A stretch of DNA of 29,638 bases from Candidatus Woesearchaeota archaeon (GCA_016181325.1 JACOZO010000002.1:1-29638), one strand, 5' to 3'; shown: positions 6,512 through 25,759, numbered from the stretch's first letter. Notes: generated by a model not told the origin, from the sequence alone. Translations and numbers: made by a program.

Positions 6512-6537
6512 TATGCTAAAAGAGAAATGTATACTAT

Positions 6538-6870
6538 ATGACCCAAATGGAAGCTGAAATCTTCATTGAAATAAAAGAAGCCGAAAAAAAAGCAGAGGAT
6601 ATCCTCCAGAGGGCTAATTCTGACGGTGAAAAGCTGGTTCAGGATGCCAAAAGCAAGGCCTCAAGCCAGCTGATGCACGGGACAAGCTCAATAGACAGGG
6701 AAAAGGCAGACAAGCTGCAGGAATTCAGGGAAAAAGTGTACGTTCTGAAGGACACGAAGCTGTCAGAGGGGAATGAGGCGATATCCAAGCTAAAGGAAAA
6801 ATCAAAGAAAAGCATGGATGCAACTGTAAAGTTCATAAATGAAAAATTTCTTGAGACACTAAGGGAGTAA
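6538..6870 (+). CDS. atpH: A-type ATP synthase subunit H (peripheral stalk)
   Basis: 110-aa charged coiled coil (EIKEAEKKAEDIL...), first gene of the operon, 1 nt before subunit I. Confidence 0.82.
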   Translation: MTQMEAEIFIEIKEAEKKAEDILQRANSDGEKLVQDAKSKASSQLMHGTSSIDREKADKLQEFREKVYVLKDTKLSEGNEAISKLKEKSKKSMDATVKFINEKFLETLRE

Positions 6871-6871
6871 A

Positions 6872-8764: not shown

Positions 8765-8815
8765 CCTGTATGATTGGGTCACGATGTTAACTGAAAAATT
8801 CGGAGGTAAAAGAAA

Positions 8816-9043
8816 ATGGTTGATGTAGGAACTGGTTTGGTTGCCATAGGGTCGGCGGTAGCGATTGTCGGCAGCGCAATTGCCGCGGGAATAGCCGAAA
8901 AATCCATAGGAGCTGCTGCTGTAGGGGCCATGGCTGAAAAAGAAGAGCTGTTCGGCAAAGGGCTTATACTGACAGTAATCCCGGAAACCCTTGTCATATT
9001 CGGCCTTGTAATGGCTCTATTGATCTTAAACCTGGCAAAGTAA
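8816..9043 (+). CDS. atpK: A-type ATP synthase subunit K (c, proteolipid), single hairpin
   Basis: Two TM helices; IGAAAVGAMAEKEELFGKGLILTVIPETLVIFG carries the ion-binding Glu (PET). Confidence 0.97.
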   Translation: MVDVGTGLVAIGSAVAIVGSAIAAGIAEKSIGAAAVGAMAEKEELFGKGLILTVIPETLVIFGLVMALLILNLAK

Positions 9044-9046
9044 GGA

Positions 9047-9598
9047 ATGCAAATGGGGCTTGAAAAAGTAAGGGACGAGATAATCGAGAGAGCAAAAAGC
9101 CAGTCCTCTCGCATTGTTGCCGAAGCAAAGGCAAAGGCGGCGCAGATACTCAGGGAAGCCGAGAAGCAGGTAGAAGGCCACAGGGAAAGGGCATCTGAAG
9201 AGTCCAAGAGGATGATGCTCGAGATAAAGAGGCAGGAGATGGCAAAGGCCGAGCTTGAATTCAAGAAACTGCTGCTCATGTCAAAGAAAGGCCTGATAGA
9301 CGAGGCTTTCGAGAAGGCCAGAAAGGAGATATCAAGGATGAATGAAAAGCAAAGGTCCGAGGCAGTGTCTCTCCTTATAAAAAAAGCTGAAAGGAGTATG
9401 GAAATAGACTGCATCTACTGCAGCAAAAGCGACGCAAAGTTCGTCAAGGGCTACAGGACAACGGAAGCTGCAATAAGCGGCGGAATAATCGCGGAAAACA
9501 AAGGCCAGACAGTCAGGATAGATTACAGCTTTGACACGCTGATGGAGTCTGTAAAGGAAGAGAAGATGCAGCAGATCGCAAAAATGCTGTTTGGATAG
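9047..9598 (+). CDS. atpE: A-type ATP synthase subunit E
   Basis: MGLEKV...I start, coiled coil, C-terminal GGIIAE...RIDYSFD motif; located after K. Confidence 0.93.
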   Translation: MQMGLEKVRDEIIERAKSQSSRIVAEAKAKAAQILREAEKQVEGHRERASEESKRMMLEIKRQEMAKAELEFKKLLLMSKKGLIDEAFEKARKEISRMNEKQRSEAVSLLIKKAERSMEIDCIYCSKSDAKFVKGYRTTEAAISGGIIAENKGQTVRIDYSFDTLMESVKEEKMQQIAKMLFG

Positions 9599-9659
9599 AT
9601 ATTACTAAATAAAGTGACCTATGATGCTGAAAACACTTCATCGCGACGAACGGAAGGAA

Positions 9660-10712
9660 ATGACGAGCACACTTGCCCATAGCGAGTACCCTTATACATA
9701 TGCCCGGACAACTGCCATGAGGGGCATGCTGCTCAAGAAGGCAGACTATCACAAGATACTGAAGATGGACTTCAATGAGATTGCAAGATTTTTGGAAGAG
9801 ACTACCTACAAAAAGTCCATCGATACATTGAGCGCGTCAATGAAAGGCGCAGACCTGCTGGAAGCGGCATTAAACAGCAATCTGGCTGAATCATTCGCAA
9901 AGCTCAGGGCAATCTCTCCCGAAGAGCTGAGGCTTTTGATTGACGAATACCTGCGGAGAAATGACATCGAGGACATCAAGACAATACTGCGCGGCAAGCT
10001 GACAAAAGCCGGCGATAAAATTATAGCGGCATCACTCCAGGCAGCCGGCACCATGGGCAAAGACGCATTGACGGGGCTGCTGAAGAAAGAATCAATAGAG
10101 CAGATATTAAAAGGCATAGACTTCATCGATTTTGCCAGGATCAAGCCTGCCCTGGAAAGGCTGCGCGAGACTAACAGCCTGGAAGAGATAGAGAATGAGC
10201 TGGACAGGTCTTATTACCAAGGGCTTCTGGAGCTGGCAGCTTCCCTTCCAAGCGAAGGCGACTTATTCAGGGATTTTCTGCTGCAGGAAATAGAGATAAT
10301 GAACATAGTCACAATAATCAAGCTGAAGCATGCCGGCATTGACAAAAGCGCAATAAGCAATTTTTTAATATTTACAGGAGTCTCCGGCAACAAAAACCTG
10401 TTTGAGAAGCTTATGAATTCCGATATCGGCTCAATGACAAGATACCTTGAGGCAAGGGATTACAGCGAAGCAATCGTGCAGGGGCTCAAGTCATACGAAA
10501 AAAACGGCTCCCTTATAGAGCTCGAGGCATCGCTTCACACCCATCTGCTCAGAAAATCGGTGCTGCTGCTTCATCAGCACCCATTGTCTGTTGACGTGAT
10601 ACTTGGCTACATGTTTGCCAAGGAAACCGAGGTCAGGAACCTCAAGATCATAGTCCGCGGAAAGCAGCTTGGCGTCGGCGAGGAATTTATCGAGAAGCAG
10701 CTGGTGATATGA
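9660..10712 (+). CDS. atpC: A-type ATP synthase subunit C (start 9660 preferred; ORF open from 9621)
   Basis: YPYTYAR..AM..LL, DIEDIKTILRGK and GYMFAKETEVRNLKIIVRGK motifs. A purine-rich ggaagga precedes ATG 9660. Confidence 0.95.
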   Translation: MTSTLAHSEYPYTYARTTAMRGMLLKKADYHKILKMDFNEIARFLEETTYKKSIDTLSASMKGADLLEAALNSNLAESFAKLRAISPEELRLLIDEYLRRNDIEDIKTILRGKLTKAGDKIIAASLQAAGTMGKDALTGLLKKESIEQILKGIDFIDFARIKPALERLRETNSLEEIENELDRSYYQGLLELAASLPSEGDLFRDFLLQEIEIMNIVTIIKLKHAGIDKSAISNFLIFTGVSGNKNLFEKLMNSDIGSMTRYLEARDYSEAIVQGLKSYEKNGSLIELEASLHTHLLRKSVLLLHQHPLSVDVILGYMFAKETEVRNLKIIVRGKQLGVGEEFIEKQLVI

Positions 10713-11015
10713 ATGGAAATAGCAGTCCTGGGCGGCAATGAATTTGTCGTCGGCTTCCAGCTGGCAGGAGTGAAGCATATAATAGAGGTCGACAAAGATA
10801 CTGATGCAATGGGAAGGATGAACAAGATAAAGAATGACGGCCAGATAAGCATGGTCATAGTCGACGAGGCAGTCCTCAGCAGGCTCGACAGGCAGGACAG
10901 GCTCGAGATTGAGGGGTCTGTAAATCCGGTGTATGTGCCTCTGTCATCAATCTCATCGCAGGAAAACCTGCGCTATCTGATTAAAAAGTCCATAGGAGTG
11001 GACATACTGTCTTGA
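10713..11015 (+). CDS. atpF: A-type ATP synthase subunit F
   Basis: IAVLG....VGFQLAGV and IKKSIGVDI motifs; 100 aa. Confidence 0.96.
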
Positions 11016-11025
11016 GGTAATAAAC

Positions 11026-12756
11026 ATGGAAAAAGGAGTATTATACAGGATTGCAGGGCCGGTTGTCGTGGCAAAAGGGATCTCGCCGAGGATGTATGAC
11101 GTATGCCGGGTCGGCAACGAGAGGCTGATGGGGGAGGTCATCCAGATAGAGGGCGAGAAGTCTATAATACAGGTCTATGAAGATACTTCAGGGATAAAGC
11201 CCGGCGAGCCCGTCGTAAACACAGGAGAGCCCCTGAAAGTAGAGCTTGGGCCCGGAATGCTGACAAGCATCTACGACGGCATACAAAGGCCGCTGCCTGT
11301 CCTGATAAAGCAGATGGGGGATTTCATCAAGAGGGGAGTTGACGCTCCGGCGCTGGACCAGAGCAAGAAGTGGGATTTCAAGGCTGTTGCAAAAAAAGGC
11401 GACAAGGTCACAGGCGGAAGCATAATCGGCGAGGTTGAAGAGACGCCGGGAATAATCCACAGGATAATGGTGCCGCCGAACATTTCAGGCACCCTGCAGG
11501 AGATAAAATCCGGAAAATTCACTGTCAATGATATAGTTGCGAAACTGGACAAAGGGGCAGAGCTGAGGATGAAGCATAACTGGCCCGTCAGGATAGGAAG
11601 GCCTTATGCCAAGAAATTAAGGCCGGAATCTCCTCTGATAACCGGGCAAAGGGTGTTTGACGCGCTGTTCCCCTTAGCCAAGGGAGGGGTTGCTGCAATC
11701 CCGGGGCCGTTCGGAGCCGGAAAGACAGTGAGCCAGCAGCAGCTTGCCAAGTGGTCTGATGCAGACATAATTGTTTATGTAGGCTGCGGAGAGCGCGGAA
11801 ACGAGATGACGGAAGTCCTTACTGAGTTTCCGGAGCTGATTGACCCGAAGACAGGAAAGCCGCTTATGAACAGGACTGTGCTGATAGCCAACACTTCAAA
11901 CATGCCGGTGGCTGCAAGGGAAGCTTCAATCTACACTGGCGCCACAATAGCTGAATATTACAGGGACATGGGGTATTCTGTTGCCCTGATGGCGGACTCG
12001 ACTTCCAGGTGGGCGGAAGCGATGAGGGAAATCTCATCGAGGCTTGAGGAAATGCCTGGCGAGGAAGGATATCCGGCATACCTTTCCACAAGGCTGGCAC
12101 AGTTTTACGAGAGGGCAGGAAGGATCATACCATTCGGCACAGACAAGGAAGGAAGCGTCTCGATTATAGGCGCAGTATCGCCGCCCGGCGGCGACTTTTC
12201 CGAGCCTGTGACGCAGAGCACATTGAGGGTGACGAAAGTGTTCTGGGCGCTTGACGCAAAGCTGGCTCAGAGAAGGCATTTTCCGTCAATAAACTGGCTG
12301 ACATCATATTCCCTTTACCTCAACACGCTTGAGGAATGGTATTCAAAGAACATAGCCACGGACTGGTCTGGCTGCGTGAGCGAGATCATGGGCATCCTCC
12401 AGGAAGAGGAAAAGCTGCTTGAGATTGTGCAGCTTGTCGGCTCTGACGCGCTGCCTGAAAGGCAGCAGCTTACACTGGAGATCGCAAGGGTGATACGGGA
12501 GTTCTTCCTGCAGCAGAATGCATTCCATGAAGTGGACACTTACTCTGAGCTGAAGAAGACGTATCTGGTGATGAAATCCATACTGAGTTATTCAAAACTG
12601 GCAAATGCTGCGCTTGATGCCGGCAGCAAAGTGCAGCCCCTGCTGAGGATAAAATCAAAGGACAGGCTGGCAGAAGTCAAGTTCGAGAAAAACTACGCGT
12701 CTTTGCTTGAGGAGATAAACAGCCAGATGGAAAAAGAGATAGGGGTTTCAAAATGA
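11026..12756 (+). CDS. atpA: A-type ATP synthase catalytic subunit A (no intein)
   Basis: Walker [33 protein letters not shown] and [12 protein letters not shown]. Confidence 0.99.
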
Positions 12757-12895
12757 AAGCAGACTCACTGACGTTCGTGGCTTTCATTTTGAATAGTAAT
12801 AAATAACGAGGTACTTCAAAATGAAAACATATTCACTGGCGTTCATAGCCTTCATTTTTAAGGCTCATGAAAGACGAGGTAGTTAAAAATGAAGG
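12741..12895 (+). repeat. Imperfect 68-nt tandem repeat of an RBS + start-codon + hairpin unit between atpA and atpB
   Basis: aaaATGAA occurs with ATG at 12753, 12821 and 12889 (period 68), each preceded by GGGGT or GAGGT. The first two units fold as aaaatgaa...ttcatttt with loop motif (c/t)tcactg(a/g)cgttc. Confidence 0.85.
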
Positions 12896-14259
12896 AATAC
12901 AAGACAATAACAAAAGTTGCGGGGCCGTTGGTTTTCGTCGAGAAAACTGAGCCAATAGGATACTGCGATCTTGTAAGGATATCACTTCCATCCGGCGACA
13001 TCAAGAATGGCCAGGTGCTTGACACGAGCGACGACATAGTTGTCGTGCAGATATTTGAGGGGACTTCGGGCATTGACAGGGGAACAAGGGTCAAATTTCT
13101 CGGCGACACACTCAAGCTTAGTGTATCCAAGGACATGCTCGGCCGCATATTGAGCGGCTCAGGCAAGCCCATAGACGGAGGGCCTGAAGTAATACCGGAG
13201 AAAAGACTTGACATCGGAGGGGCGGCCATAAATCCTTTTGCAAGGGCTTCTCCGCATGACTTCATCCAGACAGGGATATCGACTATAGATGCGATGAACA
13301 CGCTTGTCCGTGGGCAGAAACTGCCCATTTTTTCGGGCTCTGGGCTGCCGCACAACGAGATTGCGCTGCAGATTGCGAGGCAGGCCAAGGTCATCGGAAA
13401 AAGCGAGAATTTCGTCGTGATTTTTGCTGCCATGGGCATAACCAATGAGGAAGCCCAGTATTTCATGGCTGACTTTGAGCAGACAGGGGCATTGGAGAGG
13501 AGTGTTGTCTTCCTGAACCTTGCAAACGATCCTGCAGTGGAGAGGCTGGTTACGCCTAGGATGGCATTGACGGCGGCGGAATACTTTGCCTACGAGCATG
13601 ATTTTCACGTGCTTGTCATATTAACAGACATGACGAATTACTGCGAATCACTGAGGGAGATCGGTGCGGCAAGGGGAGAAATCCCCGGAAGAAGGGGATA
13701 TCCGGGCTATATGTACACAGACCTTGCCAATATCTATGAGAGGGCAGGCGTGATAAAGGGCAAGAAAGGCAGCATAACCCAGATACCGATACTGACGATG
13801 GTCGGCGACGACATCACTCACCCGATTCCCGACCTGACAGGATACATAACTGAGGGGCAGATAGTGCTGTCAAGGGAACTGCACAGGAAAGGGGTTTATC
13901 CTCCAATAGACGTGCTTCCCTCATTGTCAAGGCTGATGAATCTCGGCATCGGAAAGGAAAAAACAAGGGATGACCACAAGCAGGTTTCCGACCAGATGTA
14001 TGCGGCATATGCAGAGGGCAGGGATCTTAGGGGGCTTGTTGCGATTGTCGGAGAGGAATCTCTGAGCGAAAGGGACAGAAGACTTTTGAAATTCGCTGCG
14101 GAATTCGAGGACAAGTTCGTAAGGCAGAAAAGAAGCGATGACCGCGGCATAGGCGAAGGCACGCTTGACCTGGGCTGGAACCTCCTGGGCGCAATACCCT
14201 CAAATGAGCTGACAAGGATCAGCAAGGAGCTGAAGGAGAAATACCTTAGGCCCAAATAA
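12889..14259 (+). CDS. atpB: A-type ATP synthase subunit B
   Basis: [33 protein letters not shown] and [19 protein letters not shown]. Confidence 0.99.
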
Positions 14260-14285
14260 GCTAGTTCTGACTGAAGGCTGAGATC

Positions 14286-16220
14286 ATGATAGAAACCAAT
14301 GTCTTTTTTGCATCAATTTTTTTTGGCATAAGCATCATCCTCCCTGTCCTGGTCTCCATCAGCAGGCCCATAGCCAGAAGAATCTCAATGGCCTGCGCCG
14401 GCCTTGGGCTACTAGCGCTGGCTGACATTTCCTTAAGGGTGATGATAACCAATTCGGCCATGACGCTGAACTTGGCTTCTTTCTACAAGGAACTGAGCTT
14501 TGAGCTGCTCATTGACAGGCTCTCAGCATTCTTCATCCTTACAATCATACTGGTTTCCCTGGCTGTGCTGATTTACTCTTTTAGGTATGTGGAGCATCTC
14601 AAAAAAAAGCACGGGAAAAACATTGCGGTATCACTGATGAATCTTTTTATTGTATCCATGATACTTGTTGTTGCCTCAAAAAACCTCATCAGCTTCCTTT
14701 TCTTATGGGAATTGATGTCTATAAGCTCATTCTTCCTCGTATATTTCGATTATGAGCAAAAAACAACAGGAAAAGCGGGGATGTTCTACATTATCATGAC
14801 ACAGCTCAGCACTTTGTTCCTGATTGCCTCATTCTTACTAGTCTACAGCTCAGGCAATTCATTTGAGATAAGGCAGATGCCGCAAAATGCCCCTATGGCT
14901 TCAGTAATTTTTATACTTGCGTTTTTGGGCTTCGGCATAAAGGCGGGAGTAATCCCATTCCATAAATGGCTTCCTTATGCGCATCCTGCTGCGCCGTCAA
15001 ATATTTCTGCGCTGATGTCCGGCCTGATGATAAAGGTTGCAATCTACGGAATGATAAGAATTTTATTGACAGTCCTCCCCAAGCCCCTGCTGTGGTGGGG
15101 TGTGCTGATACTCCTATTCGGCACCCTGTCTGCGGTGCTGGGCGTCATTTATGCCCTCAAGGAGCACGACATAAAGCGTCTGCTCGCGTATCACAGCATA
15201 GAAAATATCGGAATCATCCTAATAGGGCTCGGATTGTATGTCATATTCAAAGCCAGCCACTTTGAGGCGCTTGCCTTCATGGCAATTGCCGGCTCTTTGT
15301 TCCACACACTAAACCATGCATTATTCAAAAGCCTGCTGTTCCTCACTTCCGGCTCGGTTGTCATGGCCACTGAAACCAAGAACATTGAAGACATGGGCGG
15401 CCTGATAAAAAATATGCCTGCAACGGCATTCCTTTTCCTGATAGGCGCCGTGTCGATTTCAGCCCTGCCGCCTTTCAACGGATTTGTAAGCGAATATATG
15501 ATATTCTATGTTTTCTTTAATACCCATGTCCTAATCTCGCCGTTCCTGAAAATACTTCTTGTCGCTTCTGCATGCATCCTTGCGCTCACAAGCGCCCTTG
15601 CAGCCGCATGCTTTGTAAAGGCGTTCGGGACAATCTTCCTCGGCGTTCCACGGTCCAAGCATGCTTCATCAGCACAAGAAGCTTCAAAATCAATGATAAT
15701 AGGGCCTGCCATAATAGCTATCTTGTGCGCGCTCCTTGGGATATTTTCCTTCCAGATATTCAGCATACTCGGATTTAACTTTCCAATACCTAACATGATG
15801 TACATAAGCATTGTATTAGCCGGAACCTACTTAATATTCTTCCTCCTCCTTTACCGTGCATCCAAAATCCGCGTCTATGAAACATGGTCATGCGGCTTTC
15901 CCCTGTCAAACGGAAAAACAGAATACACTGCATCAGGCTTTTCAGAGCCAATTGTGACAATCTTCAGGGCAATCTACAAGCCCAAAAGAAATTCAACAAA
16001 AGAATTCTATGATGACAGCAATGTAATTGTCAGCCATGGGCATGCAGAAATGTCACTTATGAAATTTTTTGAGGAGTACCTGTATGCCCCTGTCTTAAAG
16101 GCAGTCGATTTCACCTCAGGGATAACAGCAAGGCTTCAGGCAGGATACCTTGACCTGTACATAGTTTACGTATTCCTCGGAAGCCTTGCGCTTCTAATAG
16201 CAATGGGGGTCCTGACATGA
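14286..16220 (+). CDS. hyfB: HyfB-like antiporter-type membrane subunit (NuoL/MrpA family) of an Ehr complex
   Basis: FLWELMS (Glu), GIKAGVIPFHKWLPYAHPAAPS (Lys), LLAYHSIENIG, NHALFKSLLF and C-terminal WSCG. Confidence 0.92.
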   Translation: MIETNVFFASIFFGISIILPVLVSISRPIARRISMACAGLGLLALADISLRVMITNSAMTLNLASFYKELSFELLIDRLSAFFILTIILVSLAVLIYSFRYVEHLKKKHGKNIAVSLMNLFIVSMILVVASKNLISFLFLWELMSISSFFLVYFDYEQKTTGKAGMFYIIMTQLSTLFLIASFLLVYSSGNSFEIRQMPQNAPMASVIFILAFLGFGIKAGVIPFHKWLPYAHPAAPSNISALMSGLMIKVAIYGMIRILLTVLPKPLLWWGVLILLFGTLSAVLGVIYALKEHDIKRLLAYHSIENIGIILIGLGLYVIFKASHFEALAFMAIAGSLFHTLNHALFKSLLFLTSGSVVMATETKNIEDMGGLIKNMPATAFLFLIGAVSISALPPFNGFVSEYMIFYVFFNTHVLISPFLKILLVASACILALTSALAAACFVKAFGTIFLGVPRSKHASSAQEASKSMIIGPAIIAILCALLGIFSFQIFSILGFNFPIPNMMYISIVLAGTYLIFFLLLYRASKIRVYETWSCGFPLSNGKTEYTASGFSEPIVTIFRAIYKPKRNSTKEFYDDSNVIVSHGHAEMSLMKFFEEYLYAPVLKAVDFTSGITARLQAGYLDLYIVYVFLGSLALLIAMGVLT

Positions 16221-17158
16221 ATGAGCTGCTGATATATTCTGTATTGAATATACTTGCTGTAATATTAATCTCCCCTTTTTTTATGGGAGTCATAAAGAAA
16301 ATAAAGGCATGGTGCCAGGGCAGGGAAGGACAGCCCCTGCTGCAGCAATACTATAATCTGATTAAGCTATTGAGGAAGGAAAGCGTTGTTTCAAGCACGT
16401 CTTCATGGATCACAAGGGCAACGCCTTATGTCAACGTCGCAGCCCTGATAACTGCCGCTTTGTTTGTCCCTGTGCTGTTTGTGCCTTCCGGCAGCACATT
16501 ATTTGGAAACCTCATACTCATGCTTTACCTTCTTGCGCTTGCAAAATTCTTCATGGCCCTGGCAGGGCTCGATGCAGGAAGCACTTTTGGGGGGATGGGG
16601 AGCTCAAGGGAAATGGCATTCTCTGCGATACTTGAGCCGGTCATAATCATAATATTCCTTGCGCTGGCTTTTATGTTCAAAACCCCCAACCTGTTCGAGA
16701 TATTCAGGCAGGCTTCTGCAGTCGGCATACTTTATGCCAAGCCCCTGCTCATTCTTCTGATGGTCTCGCTTTTCATTGTGCTGATTGCGGAAACTTCAAG
16801 GGTGCCAGTAGACAATCCTGAAACCCATCTTGAGCTCACTATGATTCATGAAGGCATGGTCCTTGAGCAGTCAGGGAAATATCTTGGCATGATGGAGCTG
16901 AGCCATGCCATGAAGCAGACTCTGCTGATGGCGGTATTGATCAATATACTTGTCCCGATAGGATTTTCAACTGCATTAAGCTTTTATTCCATTGCTATCT
17001 CTTTTGCCGCATTTATGGCAAAAGGCACTGCCCTTGCTGCAGTAATCGGAATTTTTGAATCATCAATTGCAAAATTGAGGCTGTTCAGGCTGCCCGTAAT
17101 GTTCATGGTGGCATTTTTCCTTGCCTTCCTGACAATAATACTGGAGGTGTATGGATGA
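16217..17158 (+). CDS. hyfC: HyfC-like membrane subunit (NuoH family)
   Basis: GREG..LLQ.YY.L.KL..KE, GGMGSSRE and ETSRVPVDNPETHLELTMIHEGM; ATGA overlap with hyfB. Confidence 0.92.
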   Translation: MNELLIYSVLNILAVILISPFFMGVIKKIKAWCQGREGQPLLQQYYNLIKLLRKESVVSSTSSWITRATPYVNVAALITAALFVPVLFVPSGSTLFGNLILMLYLLALAKFFMALAGLDAGSTFGGMGSSREMAFSAILEPVIIIIFLALAFMFKTPNLFEIFRQASAVGILYAKPLLILLMVSLFIVLIAETSRVPVDNPETHLELTMIHEGMVLEQSGKYLGMMELSHAMKQTLLMAVLINILVPIGFSTALSFYSIAISFAAFMAKGTALAAVIGIFESSIAKLRLFRLPVMFMVAFFLAFLTIILEVYG

Positions 17159-17835
17159 TGCCTCCCTTGGCTCTGCCGGAAATAAACAAGATACTGCTTG
17201 TCCTGATACTTTTCCTGGCAGTGCTGATAATAACTGTGAAAGACCTTTTGTTCCTTAACTTCCTGTACAGGATACAGTCTTTTTTTATTGTGCTTGTGTC
17301 TTTGGCCCTGTATGCCCCGGATAGGAAAACATCTCTGCTTGCTGTTGCATCCATTACGCTCCTGAGCAAGGTCATAATAATCCCTTCCATCATCAAGAAT
17401 GCCCAGAACAAGCTGAAAATAAAGCGGGATGTGGAATTCCACTATCTTACGCCTATAAGCTCGATCCTCGTCAGCATAGCGGTGTTTTTTGCAGTTTACC
17501 TGTCATTTTCGAGGCTCATCACAGAACTGCCGGACAAGACTTTCCTAATAACAGGCTCTTTATCAGTGTCCCTCATGTTCATGGGCATGATAATAATATT
17601 CACAAGGCAGCAGACAATAACCAATATCATAGGCTTCCTCACGATAGAAAATGGCGTCCTTCTATTCTCACTTTTCATGGCCGAACTTCCTTTAATCGTT
17701 GAAGTCCTTATCCTGCTTGATTTGGTAATGCTGATAGTGCTGGCTTCATTGCTGGCATTCGGCATAGATTCCAATATAGAGGAATTCCACAAGAAGCTGC
17801 AGCCTCTTAGCAAATTCCTGGGGGGCCAAAAATGA
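17155..17835 (+). CDS. hyfE: HyfE-like membrane subunit
   Basis: Multi-TM; IIGFLTIENG motif; located between the hyfC and hyfF homologues with 4-nt overlaps on both sides. Confidence 0.85.
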   Translation: MMPPLALPEINKILLVLILFLAVLIITVKDLLFLNFLYRIQSFFIVLVSLALYAPDRKTSLLAVASITLLSKVIIIPSIIKNAQNKLKIKRDVEFHYLTPISSILVSIAVFFAVYLSFSRLITELPDKTFLITGSLSVSLMFMGMIIIFTRQQTITNIIGFLTIENGVLLFSLFMAELPLIVEVLILLDLVMLIVLASLLAFGIDSNIEEFHKKLQPLSKFLGGQK

Positions 17836-19283
17836 TGCTGCTCAGCATTCTTGTCGGAGTGTCGGCAATCCTGCTGATCATATTTTTGCGCTCCAATAAA
17901 TCAATAAACCTAGTCTCGCTGCTCCACGCGCTGTATTACGCCGGACTCTCAATATACCAAATGTATGCGGGCAGCCTGCCGCAATACTACCTTGAGAACA
18001 AATATTTTTTTATTGACAGCCTTGGAATCTATGAACTTCTGATAGCCTCAGTAATATTCTTCCTGTCAATCCTTTACCTTGAAGGCTATATCAAAAGCCT
18101 TGTCGAGCATGAAGAGCTAAATCCAAAATTTGTAAAGCTTTTCTATATCTGCATGAACCTGCTGCTGATGTCAGTCGCATTCTCCTTTTTCTCCAACAAC
18201 CTGGCGCTATTCTGGATTTTCCTTGAACTTACAACCATCTTCTCTGCAATACTCATAGTCATACTGAATGCGGTAGAAAACATCTATGCTGCATTGAAAT
18301 ACCTGTTTATAGCATCAACGTGCATGCTTTTTTCCTTCGTGGGGCTCATACTGCTATATGCGTTCACGAAGCATAATTTCGGGGCAGGCACATTAAACTG
18401 GAGCGAGCTTATGTCCTCAGCAAGCCTGATCACCCCAAGGATTGCGGCATACTCCTTCATGTTCATCTTTATCGGCTTTGGCGCAAAAGCTGCCATTGCG
18501 CCTTTTCACACCTGGGTGCCGCATGCGCATTCCAAAGCTCCCTCGGCGGTGAGCGCAATACTCTCTGCTGTTATCCTGAATGTCGGCATTTACGGAATCA
18601 TCAGGACATTTGCGGTTGTGCGCCAAACCAGTTCAGGGCAAATCGCTTCAAATATGCTGATAATATTCGGGTTTTTCACTCTTGGCATCGCAAGCCTGAG
18701 CATGCTCCAGCAAAAAAACGTAAAAAAACTCATAGCTTTTTCAAGCATTGAGCATATGGGAACCATCCTGATTGCAATAGGGCTTGCAACAAAAGCGTCT
18801 GTTTTTTGGGTGCTGATATACATCATGGCAAGCGCGCTGGCCAAATCCCTCCTATTCCTCTGCGCAGGGATAGCCAACAGGCAGTACATGAGCAATGACA
18901 TTGACTCTGTCAGGAATTTCATAAAGCTGCAGCCTCTGGCTTCTGTCGGAATTATAGTAGGGGTCCTTGCCATCTCAGGGCTGCCTCCTTTTGCGCTGTT
19001 CATGCCAAAACTGCTTGTCCTTATACAAATCAGCAAATTCTCAGTTTTAATGCTGATAATCGCTCTCTTATCCATACTGATATCCACAGGCTCTTTTGCA
19101 TTATTCTTCACAAAATTCTTTTCAAGCGTTGACGAGGCTTCGTCTATACATAAATATAATACTCCCGCGAAAATGAAAGCTTCAATAATAATCCTGATAA
19201 TCCTCCTTGCATTGCTGGGCATTTTCCTGCCTGACAGGCTTGCGGACATTGCCGGCAACATAGTGGCTGAACTGAAGATTTAA
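17832..19283 (+). CDS. hyfF: HyfF-like antiporter-type membrane subunit (NuoM/N, MrpD family)
   Basis: FWIFLELTT (Glu), GFGAKAAIAPFHTWVPHAHSKAPS (Lys), AFSSIEHMG and SGLPPF. Confidence 0.92.
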   Translation: MMLLSILVGVSAILLIIFLRSNKSINLVSLLHALYYAGLSIYQMYAGSLPQYYLENKYFFIDSLGIYELLIASVIFFLSILYLEGYIKSLVEHEELNPKFVKLFYICMNLLLMSVAFSFFSNNLALFWIFLELTTIFSAILIVILNAVENIYAALKYLFIASTCMLFSFVGLILLYAFTKHNFGAGTLNWSELMSSASLITPRIAAYSFMFIFIGFGAKAAIAPFHTWVPHAHSKAPSAVSAILSAVILNVGIYGIIRTFAVVRQTSSGQIASNMLIIFGFFTLGIASLSMLQQKNVKKLIAFSSIEHMGTILIAIGLATKASVFWVLIYIMASALAKSLLFLCAGIANRQYMSNDIDSVRNFIKLQPLASVGIIVGVLAISGLPPFALFMPKLLVLIQISKFSVLMLIIALLSILISTGSFALFFTKFFSSVDEASSIHKYNTPAKMKASIIILIILLALLGIFLPDRLADIAGNIVAELKI

Positions 19284-19291
19284 GGTGCAAT

Positions 19292-20857
19292 ATGCAAAAC
19301 CAAGAAAAAGAACTGAGGGAATTCCTGAAGGGGGTGCCTATAAGGCTCATTGGCTGCGAAAACGGCAATGAATTATATGCCAATGCCGATGAGGCGTCAT
19401 TCCCTACCTCTATGAAGCTCCTGAACGGCAAAGGATTTACTCTCATCTCGATGTTCTGCGAGGAAAAGTTCAACAGCTCAAGATTCACTCTGTTCTACGT
19501 GTTTGAGCGGGAATTATTCGACGATGTGCTGGTTGTAGTCAGAAACCTAAAATCCAAAAAGGCCGCTTCAGTGATGCAAATTTTTCCATCCGCGTCATGG
19601 TATGAAAGGGAAATAATGGACGGGTTTGGAATTGAATTTGAAGGCAATCCCGACAAAAGGCGGCTTTTCCTGCATGAACACTTTCCCAGGGACTTTCACC
19701 CCCTTCTCAAGTCTTTCAGGAACTCCCATATAAAATCCAATAACGGCAATAAGGCTGAGTACATGTTCAAGGAAATCAGCGGAGAAGGCGTCTATCAGAT
19801 CCCTGTCGGGCCGGTGCATGCAGGAATCATCGAGCCGGGCCATTTCAGATTCAGCGTGATAGGGGAAACAATATACAACCTTGAAATAAGGATGTTCTAC
19901 AAGCACAGGGGCATTGAGAAGCTTGCCGAAGGCAAAACCCCGGAATACTGCGTCAGGATTGCCGAGTCAATAAGCGGAGATGAGACTGCTGCAAACGCCG
20001 CTGCATTCTGCATGGCTGTTGAAAAAATCTCAAGCCGCACCCCTCCCATGAGGGCATTGCAGCTGCGCACAATATTTCTGGAGATGGAAAGGATTTACTC
20101 CCATCTTGGAGACTTGGCAGGCATGGCTGTCGATGTTGCATTTCCAGTCGGTGCAAGCCCTTTTTTCATACTGCGCGAGAAGATTTTGCGGGAAAATGAG
20201 CAGCTTACCGGCTCGAGATTCATGAAAGGGATCATGGCAATAGGCGGCCTGCGCAAGGATGTCAGCGAAAAGGCCATCAAGAATCTCAGGAAGTTCCTTG
20301 ATGCGTTTGAGCATGAATTCGAAAAGGCTCTTGACGTGGTATACAGCTCGCCTTCAGCAATAGACCGGCTGGAAACAACCGGCGCAATAAAAAATGAGAT
20401 TGTGAGGCCCCTGAACATAACAGGCCCTGCTGCAAGGGCATGCGGCTTTCAGAAAGACACAAGAAAAAACCACCCTTACGGAACATACTCCGGGCTTAAA
20501 TTCAATATCCATACATCAGAAAATGGGGATGTCATGTCCAGGTTCAATGTAAAGGCCGGCGAAATCATGGAATCTGTGAGAATCATCAGGAATACAGCTC
20601 AAAACCTGCAGAAAGGGCCGATCCTAAGCAAAGCCCGCATCAGGGACGGCCATTGCCTGTCCTTAGTTGAATCCCCAAGGGGGCAGAGCCTGCACTGGGC
20701 CCATATCAAACACGGGCTTGTGTACCGGTACAAAATCAGGACAGCATCTTTCTGCAACTGGCAGTCTATAGAGCATGCGGTCATGGGGAACATAGTGCCG
20801 GACTTTCCCCTAATAAACAAAAGCCTCAACCTGTCTTATGCAGGGACGGACTTGTGA
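19292..20857 (+). CDS. hyfG: Ehr large subunit (HyfG/HycE-like NuoC+NuoD fusion) without Ni-binding motifs
   Basis: WYEREIMDGFGI.FEGNPD.RRL (NuoC-like), GPVHAGIIEPGHFRF, YKHRGIEK and ESPRG. L1 reads ESISGDE and L2 reads NLSYAGTDL, with no CxxC. Confidence 0.93.
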   Translation: MQNQEKELREFLKGVPIRLIGCENGNELYANADEASFPTSMKLLNGKGFTLISMFCEEKFNSSRFTLFYVFERELFDDVLVVVRNLKSKKAASVMQIFPSASWYEREIMDGFGIEFEGNPDKRRLFLHEHFPRDFHPLLKSFRNSHIKSNNGNKAEYMFKEISGEGVYQIPVGPVHAGIIEPGHFRFSVIGETIYNLEIRMFYKHRGIEKLAEGKTPEYCVRIAESISGDETAANAAAFCMAVEKISSRTPPMRALQLRTIFLEMERIYSHLGDLAGMAVDVAFPVGASPFFILREKILRENEQLTGSRFMKGIMAIGGLRKDVSEKAIKNLRKFLDAFEHEFEKALDVVYSSPSAIDRLETTGAIKNEIVRPLNITGPAARACGFQKDTRKNHPYGTYSGLKFNIHTSENGDVMSRFNVKAGEIMESVRIIRNTAQNLQKGPILSKARIRDGHCLSLVESPRGQSLHWAHIKHGLVYRYKIRTASFCNWQSIEHAVMGNIVPDFPLINKSLNLSYAGTDL

Positions 20858-20864
20858 GCTTAAA

Positions 20865-21383
20865 ATGATAAAGCCAATCCAGAACATTTTCACGAAAAAA
20901 GCGCCGGAAGGCTTCCATTTTGACGACAAGGAATTTGCAGAGCTTGGAATGAAGCTGAAAAAAAATGTAAGCTCGGTATTCGGAAGAAGCCTTGCCATCA
21001 GGGAAGTCGACACCGGGAGCGACAATTCAACTGAAATAGAGATGGTAAACCTGACCACGCCGCATTACGACATTGAAAGATTCGGAATAACCTTTGTGGC
21101 GTCCCCGAGGCATGCAGACGCTCTGGCAGTCACCGGGGCAGTGACAAGAAACATGGAACTTGCCCTGAAAAAGACTTATGAAGCCACTCCAAACCCCAAG
21201 ATAGTCATAGCTGTCGGCGATGATGCATGCAACGGCGGGATATTCAGGAATTCATATGCTGTATGCGGAGGCGTTGATAAAGTTATACCTGTGGACCTTA
21301 AAATCCCCGGGAACCCCCCTTCCCCGAAAGAAATCCTCAAGGCGCTGCTCGCTTTAATGGAAAAAATTAAAAAAAGAAGCTGA
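20865..21383 (+). CDS. hyfI: Ehr small subunit (HyfI/NuoB-like) with all four FeS-ligating cysteines substituted (start 20865 preferred; ORF open from 20838)
   Basis: SLAIREVDTGSDNSTEIE, YDIERFGITFVASPRHADAL.VTG.VTRNM, AVGDDAC.GG and IPGNPP. Confidence 0.9.
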   Translation: MIKPIQNIFTKKAPEGFHFDDKEFAELGMKLKKNVSSVFGRSLAIREVDTGSDNSTEIEMVNLTTPHYDIERFGITFVASPRHADALAVTGAVTRNMELALKKTYEATPNPKIVIAVGDDACNGGIFRNSYAVCGGVDKVIPVDLKIPGNPPSPKEILKALLALMEKIKKRS

Positions 21384-21398
21384 ATATGCAGGCAAAAG

Positions 21399-22028
21399 AT
21401 GGCACAAGACCTGAAACCCACAAGAAGCGAACTGCTGAAGCTTAAGAAGCAGATAAAGCTGGCCAAATCAGGCCACGGGCTCCTCAAGAGGAAAAGAGAC
21501 GGGCTGATAATCGAGTTCTTCAAAATCCTGAAAAGGGCGAAGTCCATAAGGCAGGAGCTGACTGAGCAGTACAAAACTGCCCTCCAAAAAATAAATATTG
21601 CCAGGACACTTGAATCCGACCTTAAAGTCAGGTCCATAGCTATGGCAATAAAGGAGCTTCCGGAAGTTAAGGTGCAGGCCAGAAACATAATGGGCGTCGT
21701 CGTGCCTGCAATAAGCGCCTCCGAAATAAAAAAGCAGTTCATGCACAGGGGCTACGGCTTTTACGGCGTATCTTCTTCAATAGACGAAGCGGCGCAGGCA
21801 TATGAGCTGGTCGTTGAAAAGGCGATATTGATAGGGGAGATAGAGACTTCAATGAAGAAGATGCTGAATGAGATAGAGAAGACAAAGAGAAGGGTAAATG
21901 CGCTGGAATTCGTCGTGATGCCGAGGCTGGAGAAGCAGAAATCCTTCATCCAGATGAGGCTTGAGGAGATGGAGCGGGAGAATATCTTCAGGATGAAGCG
22001 CATAAAGACGAAGGCTGCTGCGGCATGA
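21399..22028 (+). CDS. atpD: A-type ATP synthase subunit D
   Basis: KPTRSELL.LK..I.LA..GH.LLKRKRDGL and EIEKTKRRVNALE motifs. Confidence 0.98.
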   Translation: MAQDLKPTRSELLKLKKQIKLAKSGHGLLKRKRDGLIIEFFKILKRAKSIRQELTEQYKTALQKINIARTLESDLKVRSIAMAIKELPEVKVQARNIMGVVVPAISASEIKKQFMHRGYGFYGVSSSIDEAAQAYELVVEKAILIGEIETSMKKMLNEIEKTKRRVNALEFVVMPRLEKQKSFIQMRLEEMERENIFRMKRIKTKAAAA

Positions 22029-22141
22029 ACAAAGAGGGAAAAAGAAAAACCATTGTCTGGTTCGTAAGGATCCTGATAGGAATCAATGCCGCAATCGTTC
22101 TTGGATTTCTGGTTTATATCTGGATTAGGTTTTGGCGATAA
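22025..22141 (+). CDS. Small single-TM protein, 38 aa, translationally coupled to atpD
   Basis: MNKEGKRKTIVWFVRILIGINAAIVLGFLVYIWIRFWR*. Its ATG overlaps the atpD stop (ATGA). Basic N-terminus followed by a hydrophobic helix. Confidence 0.6.
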   Translation: MNKEGKRKTIVWFVRILIGINAAIVLGFLVYIWIRFWR

Positions 22142-22185
22142 CTCCTAGCATTATTGATTGTGCAATAAATTCGAGGCAAAACACT

Positions 22186-22375
22186 AGAAAATTCTATGGA
22201 AATTTCTGTGAACTGGGAAATCCGTTGGATTTCCGGTTTCCCGAAAACTTATAGTTTTCGAGGATGCTCAAAAATCTCAATGATTTTTGACATTTTCTTA
22301 GCAGCAAAAATTTTGCCGAGTGACTTTTATGTCGCGAAGCGACGGGATGATTTTTATCATGAAATCAATATCATC
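22186..22375. repeat. Array of short hairpins (REP-like), including a copy of the element at 27062-27159
   Basis: ggaaatcc-gtt-ggatttcc (22216-22234), cgaaaact-tat-agttttcg (22242-22260), tcaaaaatc-N5-gatttttga (22268-22290), gtcgc-gaa-gcgac (22331-22343) and gatgat...atcatc (22346-22375). Confidence 0.8.
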
Positions 22376-22459
22376 TTCTGAAAATCAGTTAAATTTAAAT
22401 ATGAATAGTTCCATAATGCACATCAGTCATTTGATAGGCATTAAAAAAGAGGCATAAAC

Positions 22460-22675
22460 ATGGAAGAGGGATTTAAGAATGTGTTTCCGCTGTCAAGCAG
22501 CTTCATGCTCACCAGCATCTTAGGATTTCTGATTTCTGGATATTATGTCTATCCCAGAAGCATGCCATGGGGATTCACATTCATGCTGTTTTTCATGATA
22601 ATGCTCATAGCTTCGCTTATATCAATGGCGCATTCGCCGGGAGAATGGCCTATCAGGAAAAAAACTTCAAAGTGA
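22460..22675 (+). CDS. Small two-TM membrane protein, 71 aa
   Basis: gaggc RBS-like site upstream; two hydrophobic segments (PLSSSFMLTSILGFLIS; WGFTFMLFFMIMLIASLISM). Confidence 0.75.
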   Translation: MEEGFKNVFPLSSSFMLTSILGFLISGYYVYPRSMPWGFTFMLFFMIMLIASLISMAHSPGEWPIRKKTSK

Positions 22676-22691
22676 CATTATAATCTCCAAA

Positions 22692-23099
22692 ATGATACTG
22701 GCTTATCAGGAAATTCTTGCAAGGCTCGGGCTTGCAGTCATAGCAGGCGGCCTTATAGGCCTGGAGAGGGAAATAGTCCACAAGCCTGCGGGAATAAGGA
22801 CGCACATGCTTGTGTGCCTTGGCTCTGCATTGTTTATCTTAGTGGCTGTTCAGGAAATGCCTGATGAGTCGGCAAGGGTTATGGCCGGAATAGCAACCGG
22901 AATTGGATTTTTGGGGGCAGGCACAATATTCATGGCAAAAAATGCGGTGCATGGACTTACAACGGCAGCCTCAATCTGGGCAGTTGCAGCTGTAGGATTG
23001 ACCCTAGGGCTCGGATATTACATTATTGCATTGATATCGGTAGTGCTTATAGCGGCAGTACTGCAGCTTAACCGGATAAAATTCTTCAGAGAACTATAA
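22692..23099 (+). CDS. mgtC: MgtC/SapB family membrane protein (membrane domain only)
   Basis: GGLIGLERE...KPAGIRTHMLVCLGS, GIATGIGFLGAG.I and VHGLTTAASIWA.AAVG signatures. Confidence 0.93.
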   Translation: MILAYQEILARLGLAVIAGGLIGLEREIVHKPAGIRTHMLVCLGSALFILVAVQEMPDESARVMAGIATGIGFLGAGTIFMAKNAVHGLTTAASIWAVAAVGLTLGLGYYIIALISVVLIAAVLQLNRIKFFREL

Positions 23100-23125
23100 C
23101 TAACTATTGTATACTATACATTCAT

Positions 23126-25759
23126 TTAAAACTCAAAAATCTTTTGCTTTGCAGCCATTGCCGTCGGAGATTCGCCGCCGTGCCATGTGTACCTCGGCCT
23201 TACCCTTATGGGAAAAATCCTTTCGTTCGTGTCGTCAAAAATCACGGCTGCGCCTGACTCCCTCGGCAGCAGATTAAGCTGCTTGTCGATGCCCTCGCGC
23301 ATGTAGCTCTGCACAAGCATGCTCAATGCCTCGACATCCAGGTTTGCAGTCAGCCTATGGGATATCACTATGTCTGATTGAGTAATCACATCTGTGTGGA
23401 TTTTTCCCGGCTGCTGGGTTGCAAGTACAAGCGATATTCCTGGCTGGCGGCCTTCCCTCAGGATTGTTATCAGGGACTGCGAAGCTGACGTCGTGCCTTC
23501 CCTTGGCAGGAATTCATGGGCCTCGTCCAGGACAAGCCATACCAATGGCTCGCTGCTCTCCTTTTCCTGCTCCTCCGAGAAAAAATGCAGCGCCTGCGTG
23601 ACAGACTGCAGCTCCTCTGCCTTTCTTGCTACCATCCTCTGAATGAACAGCTTCTCTGCCACCAGCCCGACAACCAATGCCCTTAATGAGGATGCGCCTG
23701 CCATGGATGCATAGCAGCTGACATCGAGCACAGTGACCTGTCCGGGAACGACAAGGTGCTCTATCATCGTGCCTTCCTTGCTGAACAAGCCCCATTTATC
23801 TGCCAATAGGAACTTATTTTCAGCGGCGTCCTTGACTTCCTTGGTAACCCTGTCATCTTTATGGACCGCTTCTATGATCTCATGGATGTCGAACTCCTTG
23901 CCTTCCTCCTTCATCTCGTTTATAACGCGCTCTATAAGCACCGCCACCGAGTCATTCGGGGGGATCTCAAAAATTGACACCCATTCAGACGCGTCTATGT
24001 CAGAAGGCTTGACTGAAAAAGGGTAATCCGTAGGGATGCCCTGATCCTTGTAGCTTTTGAAATATCCTGCTGGCGTGAATATCTGTATATTGAGGCCCTT
24101 GGGCTCGATTTCCCACTGGTCAAGAAGGGGCTTTTCCTTGTTGTTCGGGTACTTCATCGTCCAATAAACGCCCATCGTGTCCAGCATTATTATGGAAAGC
24201 TTGTTTTTTATCGCTTCAGGAAGGTCGAATATTCCTTCTGCGATGGCGCCCATCGTGTAGCTGTTATGCACGATGATATTATTTGCAACAAAATTATGGA
24301 TTTCCGGCACGGTTATGTCATACACTGTAAATTCTCCACGAAGATTTTCTATTGAGACTATTTCATCCCAGAAAATATCTGACTGGGCGAGCATAAGCAT
24401 CCTATAATTATCATCAGCCATGGCTATCTGCAGAAGTTTCTGCCTTGAAGGAGAATAATTTATGCTTGATCTTGCTGCTTTTGGAAATTTATAATTTAAA
24501 TGCCTTCCTGCAGAGGCCCAGCTTCTTGGCCTGTAGAAATCCCACATTTCTTTAGGGATTGTATCAACATTAGGGTTTCTTTTTGCGCTTTTTAATTCAA
24601 GCAATGCGGCATTCTGCCTTTCCTCTTTCTGCCCAAAAAAGCCTATATCCTGTATGTATTTCTCGACATTATTCCCGTCCAAAACCAATTCGAAGCTATC
24701 AAATAACTTATTTCTACATTTTATTTTCTTATGCCTCAGTCTTGCTAAAATCTCAAATCTCAACAAAAGACTTTGAATCTGTCTGGCAAGCTTTAATGAT
24801 GAAGTAGAGTATGATATCTCCCAATATACCCTGTCTTTTTGCGGCTTGTATATACTTCCATCACAGCTAAAAAGCCTGTTAAGAAACAATGAAAGCCTGT
24901 TCTTAGGATACTGCATAATCTCATCAGAAAGGAATTTTTCTTTCGAGAGCAAATTGTAAATGCCGTGCTTTTCCAATAATTCGCGGATTTTAGTCTTCTC
25001 GTGAGTTATAGAAGTTCCTATGCTGAATTTTCCACCTATATCCCTGTTGATTTTGTAACCAAGAACCTTCCTTCTGTAATTCCTATAACTGACTTTGTAA
25101 TGTCCCTCCTTTAACCTGACTAGAGATATCTTTTCGTCAAGCCCTTTTAGGGAATTTTGCATATCCCGTATTATTTTTTCATCTTTATTAGAAAAAAACA
25201 TGGACTTTTTTGTGTGCCCTTCTGATATCATATATGCCAAAATCTTTACATCGCATTCCTGCTGTACAGCCGAGCCGAAAGAACTTATTTTTCTTGGAGT
25301 AGCTATCCTTTCTCCTGCCCCTAGCCTGCAAGAAGGCCTCCATCCTGCCACAGTTAAAAGGGGATGCTCAGGGGTAAGTTTTATCTCCCTGCCGCTTCTG
25401 AGCCGAATATGCAGCAAATCGCTTACCTTCCTTTTAAAGAACTCTGTCTTTTTACCGGGAATTATCTTTAAATCGTGGCTTAACCCCATAATATTGTTAT
25501 TCTTATAATCACATAAATCCCTGATTGGAACTTCTAAACCATTGTCTAGTGTCACAAAGGTATCCCCATGGAGGCATTTCCCGCTGCCCCTCTTGCCGGC
25601 GATGAAAACGACGTGGGACCTGGTGACGTCCATGTAAACCTTGTTTGACAGCGAAGTCGTCTGCCCCATCTGGACATACTGCTTGCCAAGAAATATCGTG
25701 CCGTCAAGCCCGAATTTCACCCTGTCAGACTCTTTCCTGCCAATTATAATCTCATACAT
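23126..25759 (-). CDS. HerA/DUF87-like P-loop ATPase precursor containing an intein (spliced product about 439 aa)
   Basis: HVVFIAGKRGSGK|SYT split Walker A, WLVLDEAHEFLP Walker B and REGRQPGISLVLATQQP. Confidence 0.9.
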   Translation of the reverse strand: MYEIIIGRKESDRVKFGLDGTIFLGKQYVQMGQTTSLSNKVYMDVTRSHVVFIAGKRGSGKCLHGDTFVTLDNGLEVPIRDLCDYKNNNIMGLSHDLKIIPGKKTEFFKRKVSDLLHIRLRSGREIKLTPEHPLLTVAGWRPSCRLGAGERIATPRKISSFGSAVQQECDVKILAYMISEGHTKKSMFFSNKDEKIIRDMQNSLKGLDEKISLVRLKEGHYKVSYRNYRRKVLGYKINRDIGGKFSIGTSITHEKTKIRELLEKHGIYNLLSKEKFLSDEIMQYPKNRLSLFLNRLFSCDGSIYKPQKDRVYWEISYSTSSLKLARQIQSLLLRFEILARLRHKKIKCRNKLFDSFELVLDGNNVEKYIQDIGFFGQKEERQNAALLELKSAKRNPNVDTIPKEMWDFYRPRSWASAGRHLNYKFPKAARSSINYSPSRQKLLQIAMADDNYRMLMLAQSDIFWDEIVSIENLRGEFTVYDITVPEIHNFVANNIIVHNSYTMGAIAEGIFDLPEAIKNKLSIIMLDTMGVYWTMKYPNNKEKPLLDQWEIEPKGLNIQIFTPAGYFKSYKDQGIPTDYPFSVKPSDIDASEWVSIFEIPPNDSVAVLIERVINEMKEEGKEFDIHEIIEAVHKDDRVTKEVKDAAENKFLLADKWGLFSKEGTMIEHLVVPGQVTVLDVSCYASMAGASSLRALVVGLVAEKLFIQRMVARKAEELQSVTQALHFFSEEQEKESSEPLVWLVLDEAHEFLPREGTTSASQSLITILREGRQPGISLVLATQQPGKIHTDVITQSDIVISHRLTANLDVEALSMLVQSYMREGIDKQLNLLPRESGAAVIFDDTNERIFPIRVRPRYTWHGGESPTAMAAKQKIFEF
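24263..25576 (-). mobile_element. Intein with LAGLIDADG homing endonuclease, 438 aa
   Basis: Starts CLHGDT.V, has block B TPEHPLL, ends VYDITV...HNFVAN.IIVHN followed by +1 Ser. LAGLIDADG-like helices ILAYMISEG and FLNRLFSCDG. A sampled line is about 33% GC versus about 55% in an extein line. Confidence 0.95.

Follow-up and report, generated by a model that had tools for sequence, protein, structure and literature searches.

The genetic context of a six-gene cassette for an energy-converting hydrogenase-related complex (Ehr) was examined in one whole contig (C34; GCA_016181325.1, JACOZO010000002.1) of a Woesearchaeota-type DPANN genome bin, and the cassette was found inside the operon for an A-type ATPase, between atpB and atpD. 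The 29,638 bases of this contig are referred to as the window. In four other lineages of the Woesearchaeales, Ehr genes were likewise found in or next to the ATPase operon, and the association is lineage-specific yet recurrent. The position of Ehr in the window is not an accident of one genome, and points to selection for co-regulation with the ATPase. The best explanation for the observations as a whole, which we consider to have somewhat more than an even chance of being right, is that Ehr is co-expressed from the ATPase operon and would move ions without redox chemistry on a gradient shared with the ATPase. The Ehr family itself is known, its recurrent genomic association is new, and the mechanism is one that we infer.

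Gene arrangement and junctions

The genome bin comprises 0.91 Mb in 143 contigs and is 76% complete. The sequencing runs that contain the window sequence are groundwater metagenomes, and the named genomes nearest by ATPase subunit D belong to Woesearchaeota/Nanoarchaeia. Genes for all nine A-type ATPase subunits (H, I, K, E, C, F, A, B and D) were identified on one strand using Pfam (atpH weakly, with an E value of 9e-4), and the order on the + strand is atpH-I-K-E-C-F-A-B, ehrB-C-E-F-G-I, atpD. The contiguous canonical order in which atpB adjoins atpD is not present in the window, where atpB (coordinates 12889 to 14259; Pfam) and atpD (coordinates 21399 to 22028; PF01813), which encodes the central stalk subunit D, are 7.1 kb apart. 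This atpD gene is the only one found in the 76%-complete genome.

The Ehr block is separated from atpB by a spacer of 26 nt (coordinates 14260 to 14285), which contains no TATA-like element and no repeat, and from atpD by 15 nt. Within the cassette, adjacent genes overlap by 4 nt or are separated by gaps of 7-8 nt. The gene order, spacers and Ehr assignment given in a first-pass annotation of the window were correct when examined using Pfam and the coordinates. That annotation had also seen no inverted repeat or transposase at the borders, and no direct or inverted repeats of at least 9 nt common to both Ehr borders, and no transposase at the borders, were found. The composition of the block is unremarkable, with the GC content at third codon positions at 0.51-0.58 in the Ehr genes and 0.52-0.64 in the ATPase genes.

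An assembly chimera, with the Ehr block wrongly joined into an ATPase contig, had been named in the first-pass annotation as a possible cause of the arrangement, and no support for it was found beyond the origin of the window in a fragmented metagenome bin. An identical AtpD protein is encoded on six further contigs, each 99.3-100% identical to the window, from two NCBI genome assemblies and four per-run Logan assemblies. Both of the other NCBI assemblies include the two junctions, with the gene order from atpA and atpB through the six Ehr genes to atpD unchanged, and the ehrI-atpD junction is spanned by Logan contigs from four runs. When Logan contigs of four runs were placed on window positions 11000-23200, error-free contigs spanning both the atpB-ehrB and the ehrI-atpD junction were found in three runs. 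Depth was flat over the Ehr block (~35 and ~32 in two runs) and matched that of the unique flank beyond atpD, and no contig joining atpB straight to atpD was found among the Logan contigs of the runs examined. Low-depth fragments of the same sequence were also found in a run of a second study. Because of the independent assemblies spanning the junctions, the even depth and the lack of an alternative atpB-atpD joint, a chimera is practically excluded and was rejected.

Subunits, cofactor sites and family of the Ehr cassette

The ehrB (coordinates 14286 to 16220) and ehrF (coordinates 17832 to 19283) genes encode antiporter-like subunits of the NuoL/HyfB/HycC type and the NuoM/N/HyfF/MbhH type, respectively. 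Both contain PF00361, with PF00662 also present in EhrB, and they score above the cut-off of two NCBIfam "hydrogenase membrane subunit" models (NF006418 for EhrB and NF006427 for EhrF). The ehrC gene (coordinates 16217 to 17158) encodes a NuoH/HycD-like membrane subunit (PF00146), and ehrE (coordinates 17155 to 17835) encodes a HyfE-like small membrane subunit that has no Pfam match and matches NF008556 (hydrogenase 4 membrane subunit) below the cut-off, with an E value of 4e-15. The product of ehrG (coordinates 19292 to 20857) is a NuoC-NuoD fusion, a homologue of the hydrogenase large subunit identified using Pfam and alignment to HycE, and that of ehrI (coordinates 20865 to 21383, with an alternative start at 20838) is a NuoB/HycG-like small subunit identified by alignments to MbhJ and HycG. 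As homologues of the group 4 large and small subunits, NuoH and antiporter-like subunits are encoded together (Pfam, NCBIfam and solved structures), the cassette is, on its predicted subunit content, a member of the known and widespread Ehr family.

Alignment of EhrG with Escherichia coli HycE (7Z0S_E) revealed that all four Cys residues that bind the NiFe centre have been replaced, CGIC by SGDE and CYSC by SYAG, hence both large-subunit CxxC motifs are absent, as in other Ehr. In EhrI, the four Cys ligands of the [4Fe-4S] cluster in MbhJ and HycG are replaced by D, T, D and N, and loss of these ligands was also found in 10 of 10 other small subunits of this Ehr family that were aligned. The eight ligand positions that characterise a group 4 [NiFe]-hydrogenase are therefore all replaced. 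A ferredoxin-like 2x[4Fe-4S] subunit (HycF/HyfH/NuoI type) was not found among the six genes or in related cassettes with listed genes. As there is no NiFe site, iron-sulfur (FeS) cluster, HycF/HyfH-type subunit, HyfA or formate dehydrogenase, the window Ehr, judged from its predicted ligands and subunits, cannot be a hydrogenase.

Among solved structures, the E. coli formate hydrogenlyase/hydrogenase-4 (Hyc/Hyf; PDB 7Z0S) provides the best match for EhrB (HycC) and EhrG (HycE), and the best match for EhrI is MbhJ, followed by HycG. Hyc/Hyf has the same subunit types and a similar gene order, and differs from the window cassette in possessing the cofactors and additional subunits listed above. 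EhrB and EhrF also match MbhH of the Pyrococcus furiosus membrane-bound hydrogenase (PDB 6CFW) and MrpA/MrpD of the Mrp Na+/H+ antiporters (PDB 6Z16, 7QRU and 7D3U). Compared with HycC, EhrB retains the Glu in transmembrane segment (TM) 5 and the Lys residues in TM7, TM8 and TM12. Compared with MbhH, EhrF retains the TM5 Glu and the TM7 and TM12 Lys, and the TM8 Lys is replaced by Asn. Subunits of the MrpA/MrpD type with the conserved charged residues are thus present as EhrB and EhrF. However, no Pfam families for MrpB, MrpE, MrpF or MrpG were found in the cassette, the rest of the genome not having been searched for them, and the cassette differs from Mrp both in having no MrpE-, MrpF- or MrpG-type subunits and in keeping a complex-I-like peripheral arm that is absent from Mrp.

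The Ehr concept goes back to Marreiros et al. 2013, cited for it in both PMC6349859 and PMC7304191, the latter of which mentions an Ehr clade in the candidate phyla radiation. The function of Ehr is still called unknown in both of these papers and in PMC10284858 and PMC10432482. Thousands of proteins share ~55-64% identity with EhrG, and these relatives, invariably encoded in the gene order B-C-E-F-G-I, are from Bathyarchaeia, Altiarchaeia, Methanoregula, Dehalococcoidia, Aenigmatarchaeota and Woesearchaeota. This order is identical in ~130 loci from many phyla. The small subunit is 58-73% identical across archaeal and bacterial phyla, and in most comparisons no other subunit is as well conserved. 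The window cassette resembles known Ehr in its group 4 large- and small-subunit, NuoH and antiporter-like homologues, in the absence of the NiFe Cys residues and in its gene order, and differs in its location inside an A-type ATPase operon, in having no promoter motif of its own and in a small subunit lacking all four FeS ligands.

Two bacterial cysteine-less Ehr variants (L181 and L182) have the permuted orders C-E-F-G-I-B and I-B-C-E-F-G and other residues at the former FeS positions. These were also found to be unlinked to an ATPase.

Distribution of Ehr and linkage to the ATPase operon

Collinearity between the window and a genome of the same genus (G001, 79% complete) extends from position 5297 to the atpB stop codon, including the stretch from 6538 to 12756, and atpB of G001 is 94% identical to that in the window. 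Collinearity resumes 3 nt before the atpD start, runs to the atpD stop (85% identity for this gene) and ends right after atpD. The atpB-atpD spacer in G001 is 46 nt, and Ehr was not found in this 79%-complete genome. In this comparison, the Ehr cassette occupies what appears as a 46-nt atpB-atpD spacer in the nearest relative. As the synteny with G001 stops after atpD, the arrangement may have arisen either by entry of Ehr into the spacer or by movement of atpD to a position behind an Ehr that was already downstream. In G001 to G004 and in other genera of the family, atpB adjoins atpD, which agrees with the usual order cited in the first-pass annotation.

Ehr was found in two of 70 species of the family, one of them represented by the window genome, and the other 68 were without a match to this query. 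In the sample of 401 genomes from the order, ten carry Ehr, again including the window genome. A conserved family module was rejected, as no Ehr was found in the same-genus genome or, with this query, in 68 of the 70 family species. The exact arrangement of Ehr between atpB and atpD was found only in this species-level lineage, indicating that the bioenergetic module envisaged in the first-pass annotation is not a conserved one.

A sister lineage (AtpD 84% identical) carries an intein in atpB and an unrelated gene for a protein of 185 aa between atpB and atpD. In this lineage (L020 to L023), AtpB is 984 aa and the intein includes a LAGLIDADG endonuclease domain. The possibility that the 185-aa gene is a decayed ehrI was rejected, as it has no similarity to ehrI and no Pfam match.

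In four other Woesearchaeales lineages Ehr is linked to the ATPase operon, in three downstream of atpD and in one inverted between atpB and atpD. In G008, from another genus of the same family, the order C-F-A-B-D is followed after ~600 nt by ehrB at a contig end, and the remaining cassette is on another contig. In G482, from another family of the order, C-F-A-B-D is followed after ~460 nt by the whole cassette on the same strand. The Logan contig L046, which carries the closest relative of the window Ehr (EhrG 64% identical), includes the end of atpD followed after ~750 nt by the cassette. In the fourth case, a 96-kb contig of an NCBI assembly (L048), H-I-K-E-C-F-A-B is followed by the cassette on the opposite strand and then by atpD on the ATPase strand. 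A search of the literature for Ehr inside or adjacent to an ATPase operon found no such description, the original paper of Marreiros et al. being outside the search.

The G008 genome includes two ATPase loci, on contigs C142 and C217 (L045 and L013), and the second is divergent, with AtpB 60% and AtpD 36% identical to those of the window. In the locus on the Ehr side, atpB is broken and atpD contains an in-frame TGA, perhaps owing to sequencing error or decay.

In a tree built from concatenated EhrC, EhrF, EhrG and EhrI, the window cassette clusters with L046, L048, L047, L049 and G500 in one clade (support 100/100), and G008, G482 and three other cassettes form a second clade (support 100/99). 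The linked state requires at least three changes on well-supported branches. A tree that forces all linked cassettes together was rejected (p-AU 0.001 in the approximately unbiased test), the group tested having been named after the tree was seen. As cassettes of two clades have ended up, or stayed, by the 3' end of the ATPase operon, selection for co-regulation is suggested. Linkage is far commoner than expected for random placement among ~1,000 genes, for which no formal statistic is given because the genomes are related.

Outside the order, 40 loci in species genomes and 80 metagenome loci (51 with usable flanking sequence) were examined, and an ATPase was nearby only in one Methanomicrobiales type, at 5.8 kb and in convergent orientation. 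A general linkage of Ehr and ATPase across phyla was therefore rejected, as there was no close linkage in ~80 informative loci. The first-pass annotation had noted that its reading would fail if the arrangement were a one-off insertion absent from all relatives. The exact arrangement was indeed found in one lineage only, but Ehr beside the ATPase operon was not.

Expression, proposed function and neighbouring features

Scans for sigma-70 promoters and intrinsic terminators are inapplicable to archaea, and a TATA matrix was used instead. In 403 upstream regions of this genome that are free of open reading frames (ORFs), A/T-rich hexamers peak 28-31 nt before start codons, and a 10-column TATA matrix with the consensus ATTTATATAT was derived from these regions. 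The region upstream of atpH includes a strong archaeal TATA-like box (coordinates 6503 to 6512; + strand), 35 nt from the atpH start, with a score of 11.0, the 98th percentile of intergenic upstream regions, whereas the best score upstream of ehrB is -6.4, the 4th percentile. The corresponding scores for ehrB of L046, L048, L047 and G105 (locus L042) are 6.7-8.6. As the window ehrB lacks the TATA-like element that several other cassettes have, the cassette looks promoter-less and dependent on the ATPase promoter, and Ehr is likely to be co-transcribed with the ATPase genes.

The best site upstream of atpD (coordinates 21365 to 21374; + strand) is an A/T-rich TATA-like 10-mer at -34, in the lysine-rich end of ehrI. 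Its score of 5.5 is at the 56th percentile of intergenic and the 88th percentile of ORF-covered regions. The ehrI gene in L048 ends with the same 10-mer, though no gene is downstream on that strand, and it is therefore probably a by-product of coding, a weak internal atpD promoter being possible. As the L048 cassette is inverted between atpB and atpD, atpD in L048 must have its own promoter. The first-pass annotation had atpD probably expressed only by transcription through the Ehr genes. This is plausible, but the 10-mer at the usual distance from atpD and the case of L048 weaken it, and it is not established.

Transcription from the atpH promoter would produce a single operon of ~15.5 kb and 15 genes, with atpD expressed by read-through, possibly aided by the weak internal TATA-like element. 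The Ehr complex is proposed to move ions without redox chemistry as a Mrp-like cation/proton exchanger or gradient converter, made up of the two antiporter-like subunits, the NuoH-like subunit and the HyfE-like subunit. It would work on the gradient across the membrane that is also generated or consumed by the ATPase, in a cell lacking a respiratory chain, and control by the ATPase promoter would tie the dosage of Ehr to that of the enzyme making or using the gradient. No respiratory chain genes were seen in the genome (76% complete). A redox-free ion translocator is the simplest reading because the metal ligands are gone, there is no electron-input subunit and the channel residues are intact. 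Ion exchange is proposed because EhrB and EhrF match MbhH and MrpA/MrpD and have the TM5 Glu and the TM7 and TM12 Lys, though antiporter activity can be put forward only tentatively, at rather less than an even chance.

A functional analogy is provided by the deactive form of mitochondrial complex I, which is described in PMC3464577 as acting as a Na+/H+ antiporter when disconnected from redox chemistry. In both cases a membrane arm of the complex I type would act as an antiporter uncoupled from redox, but deactive complex I is a regulatory state of a redox enzyme, whereas Ehr would be permanently free of cofactors.

Several observations weigh against co-expression and a shared gradient. The exact arrangement is found in one species-level lineage only, at least seven Woesearchaeales Ehr cassettes stand alone, as do nearly all from other phyla, and the atpB-atpD spacer may simply tolerate insertions, as the sister lineage holds its 185-aa gene there. 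The L048 cassette is antisense to the ATPase genes. In the other three linked cases, linkage need not mean one transcript because there are gaps of 460-750 nt and TATA-like matches before ehrB, a good one in L046 and weaker ones in G482 and G008. For the window, no RNA run was found among those listed, and we infer co-transcription from motifs only. Lineages with and without Ehr share an identical ion-site region in the rotor c subunit, and an adaptation of the rotor to Ehr was accordingly rejected. Genes for a membrane pyrophosphatase and for a CPA-type Na+/H+ exchanger are present in the genome as well, hence Ehr is not the sole candidate partner of the ATPase. Finally, the high conservation of the small subunit suggests that the peripheral arm does something. 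The functional partnership suggested in the first-pass annotation thus receives comparative support from Ehr beside the ATPase in four more lineages and two clades, but not from the many lone cassettes or the unchanged c subunit, and a functional coupling of Ehr and ATPase is considered marginally more probable than its absence.

The location could alternatively reflect neutral hitch-hiking of a mobile, horizontally transferred cassette, with the 3' end of a strong operon serving as a permissive landing site in a compact genome and the insertion being kept since read-through sustains atpD, without any specific tie to the ATPase. An Ehr tree incongruent with taxonomy and the scattered occurrence of Ehr in the family and the order are consistent with this, as are the unrelated gene in the same spacer of the sister lineage, the prevalence of lone cassettes and the lack of a matching change in the c subunit. 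However, five lineages have Ehr at one particular operon among ~1,000 genes, which takes at least three changes of state on the Ehr tree, the linkage persists through differing arrangements, and close linkage was never seen in the ~80 informative loci of other phyla. Hitch-hiking is considered less likely than the functional reading, at well below an even chance.

Another possibility is that Ehr is a primary ion pump, driven by a non-redox or cryptic redox reaction at the NuoD/NuoB-like arm and supplying the gradient for ATP synthesis. The conservation of the small subunit argues for a functional arm and not a relic, and the coupling residues of the membrane arm are also kept. This is improbable given the replacement of all eight metal ligands and the absence of a NuoI/HycF-like or other FeS subunit from ~130 cassettes. 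In addition, pyruvate:ferredoxin oxidoreductase was not found in the 76%-complete genome, and no candidate gene for substrate handling is consistently adjacent. A physical supercomplex of Ehr and the A-type ATPase, with the shared operon serving co-assembly, appears very improbable. The gene arrangement, with Ehr before the stalk gene atpD, is all that favours it. The remaining linked lineages have the cassette either inverted or beyond the operon core, and the ATPase subunits are equally conserved in Ehr-free relatives.

Ehr is widespread and strongly conserved in anaerobic archaea and bacteria, and is usually annotated as "hydrogenase" or "NADH dehydrogenase" despite being unable to bind the metal centres. 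Its recurrence beside the ATPase operon gives a concrete reason to look for ATPase-coupled ion transport and not redox chemistry, and bears on the management of membrane potential in DPANN archaea without respiratory chains. It also reveals that an essential operon tolerates a 7-kb insertion ahead of the stalk gene. More speculatively, and with a probability well below even, cofactor-less Ehr may be dedicated partners of rotary ATPases in ultra-small prokaryotes without respiration, either redox-free gradient converters or docked modules, with their genes drawn independently to the ATPase operon. If true, this would be the first functional assignment for a family that has been unexplained since 2013. 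A carbonic anhydrase partner was considered and rejected, as the 76%-complete genome yielded no beta-carbonic anhydrase and none of the called neighbours of archaeal cassettes belonged to a carbonic anhydrase family, the search for CsoSCA having had no positive control.

The remaining ATPase genes, all on the + strand and identified using Pfam, are atpH (coordinates 6538 to 6870), atpI (6872 to 8764), atpK (8816 to 9043), atpE (9047 to 9598), atpC (9621 to 10712), atpF (10713 to 11015) and atpA (11026 to 12756). The 132-nt spacer between atpA and atpB (coordinates 12757 to 12888) consists of extra tandem copies of a 68-nt junction unit, which includes the atpA end, a ribosome-binding site and the atpB start, each copy with a hairpin. 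In G001 the unit occurs just once and the spacer is ~7 nt, and the 77 nt of G001 sequence match the window at two positions, hence the repeat array is specific to the Ehr-carrying lineage. The near-identical assembly L014 is without 66 nt (22 codons, in-frame) of the 3' part of atpA (window coordinates 12516 to 12581).

An ORF of 38 codons (coordinates 22025 to 22141; + strand), predicted to encode a one-helix membrane peptide, overlaps the atpD stop codon as ATGA and was also called as a gene in the independent assemblies. A similar 41-aa ORF follows atpD in G008, between atpD and ehrB (L045), and the product may be an unrecognised small ATPase-associated membrane protein travelling with atpD. 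A gene for a membrane protein of the MgtC family (coordinates 22692 to 23099; + strand; Pfam E value 1e-37) is ~660 nt downstream of atpD. As the F1Fo ATP synthase of Salmonella is bound and inhibited by MgtC, this neighbourhood may be meaningful. The intergenic sequence from 22181 to 22327 is strain-variable, as per-run contigs show differing short sequences and small indels there between identical flanks. An ORF of 877 aa is located further downstream on the - strand (coordinates 23126 to 25759), and its counterpart in the near-identical assemblies L014 and L015 includes intein splicing and LAGLIDADG domains.

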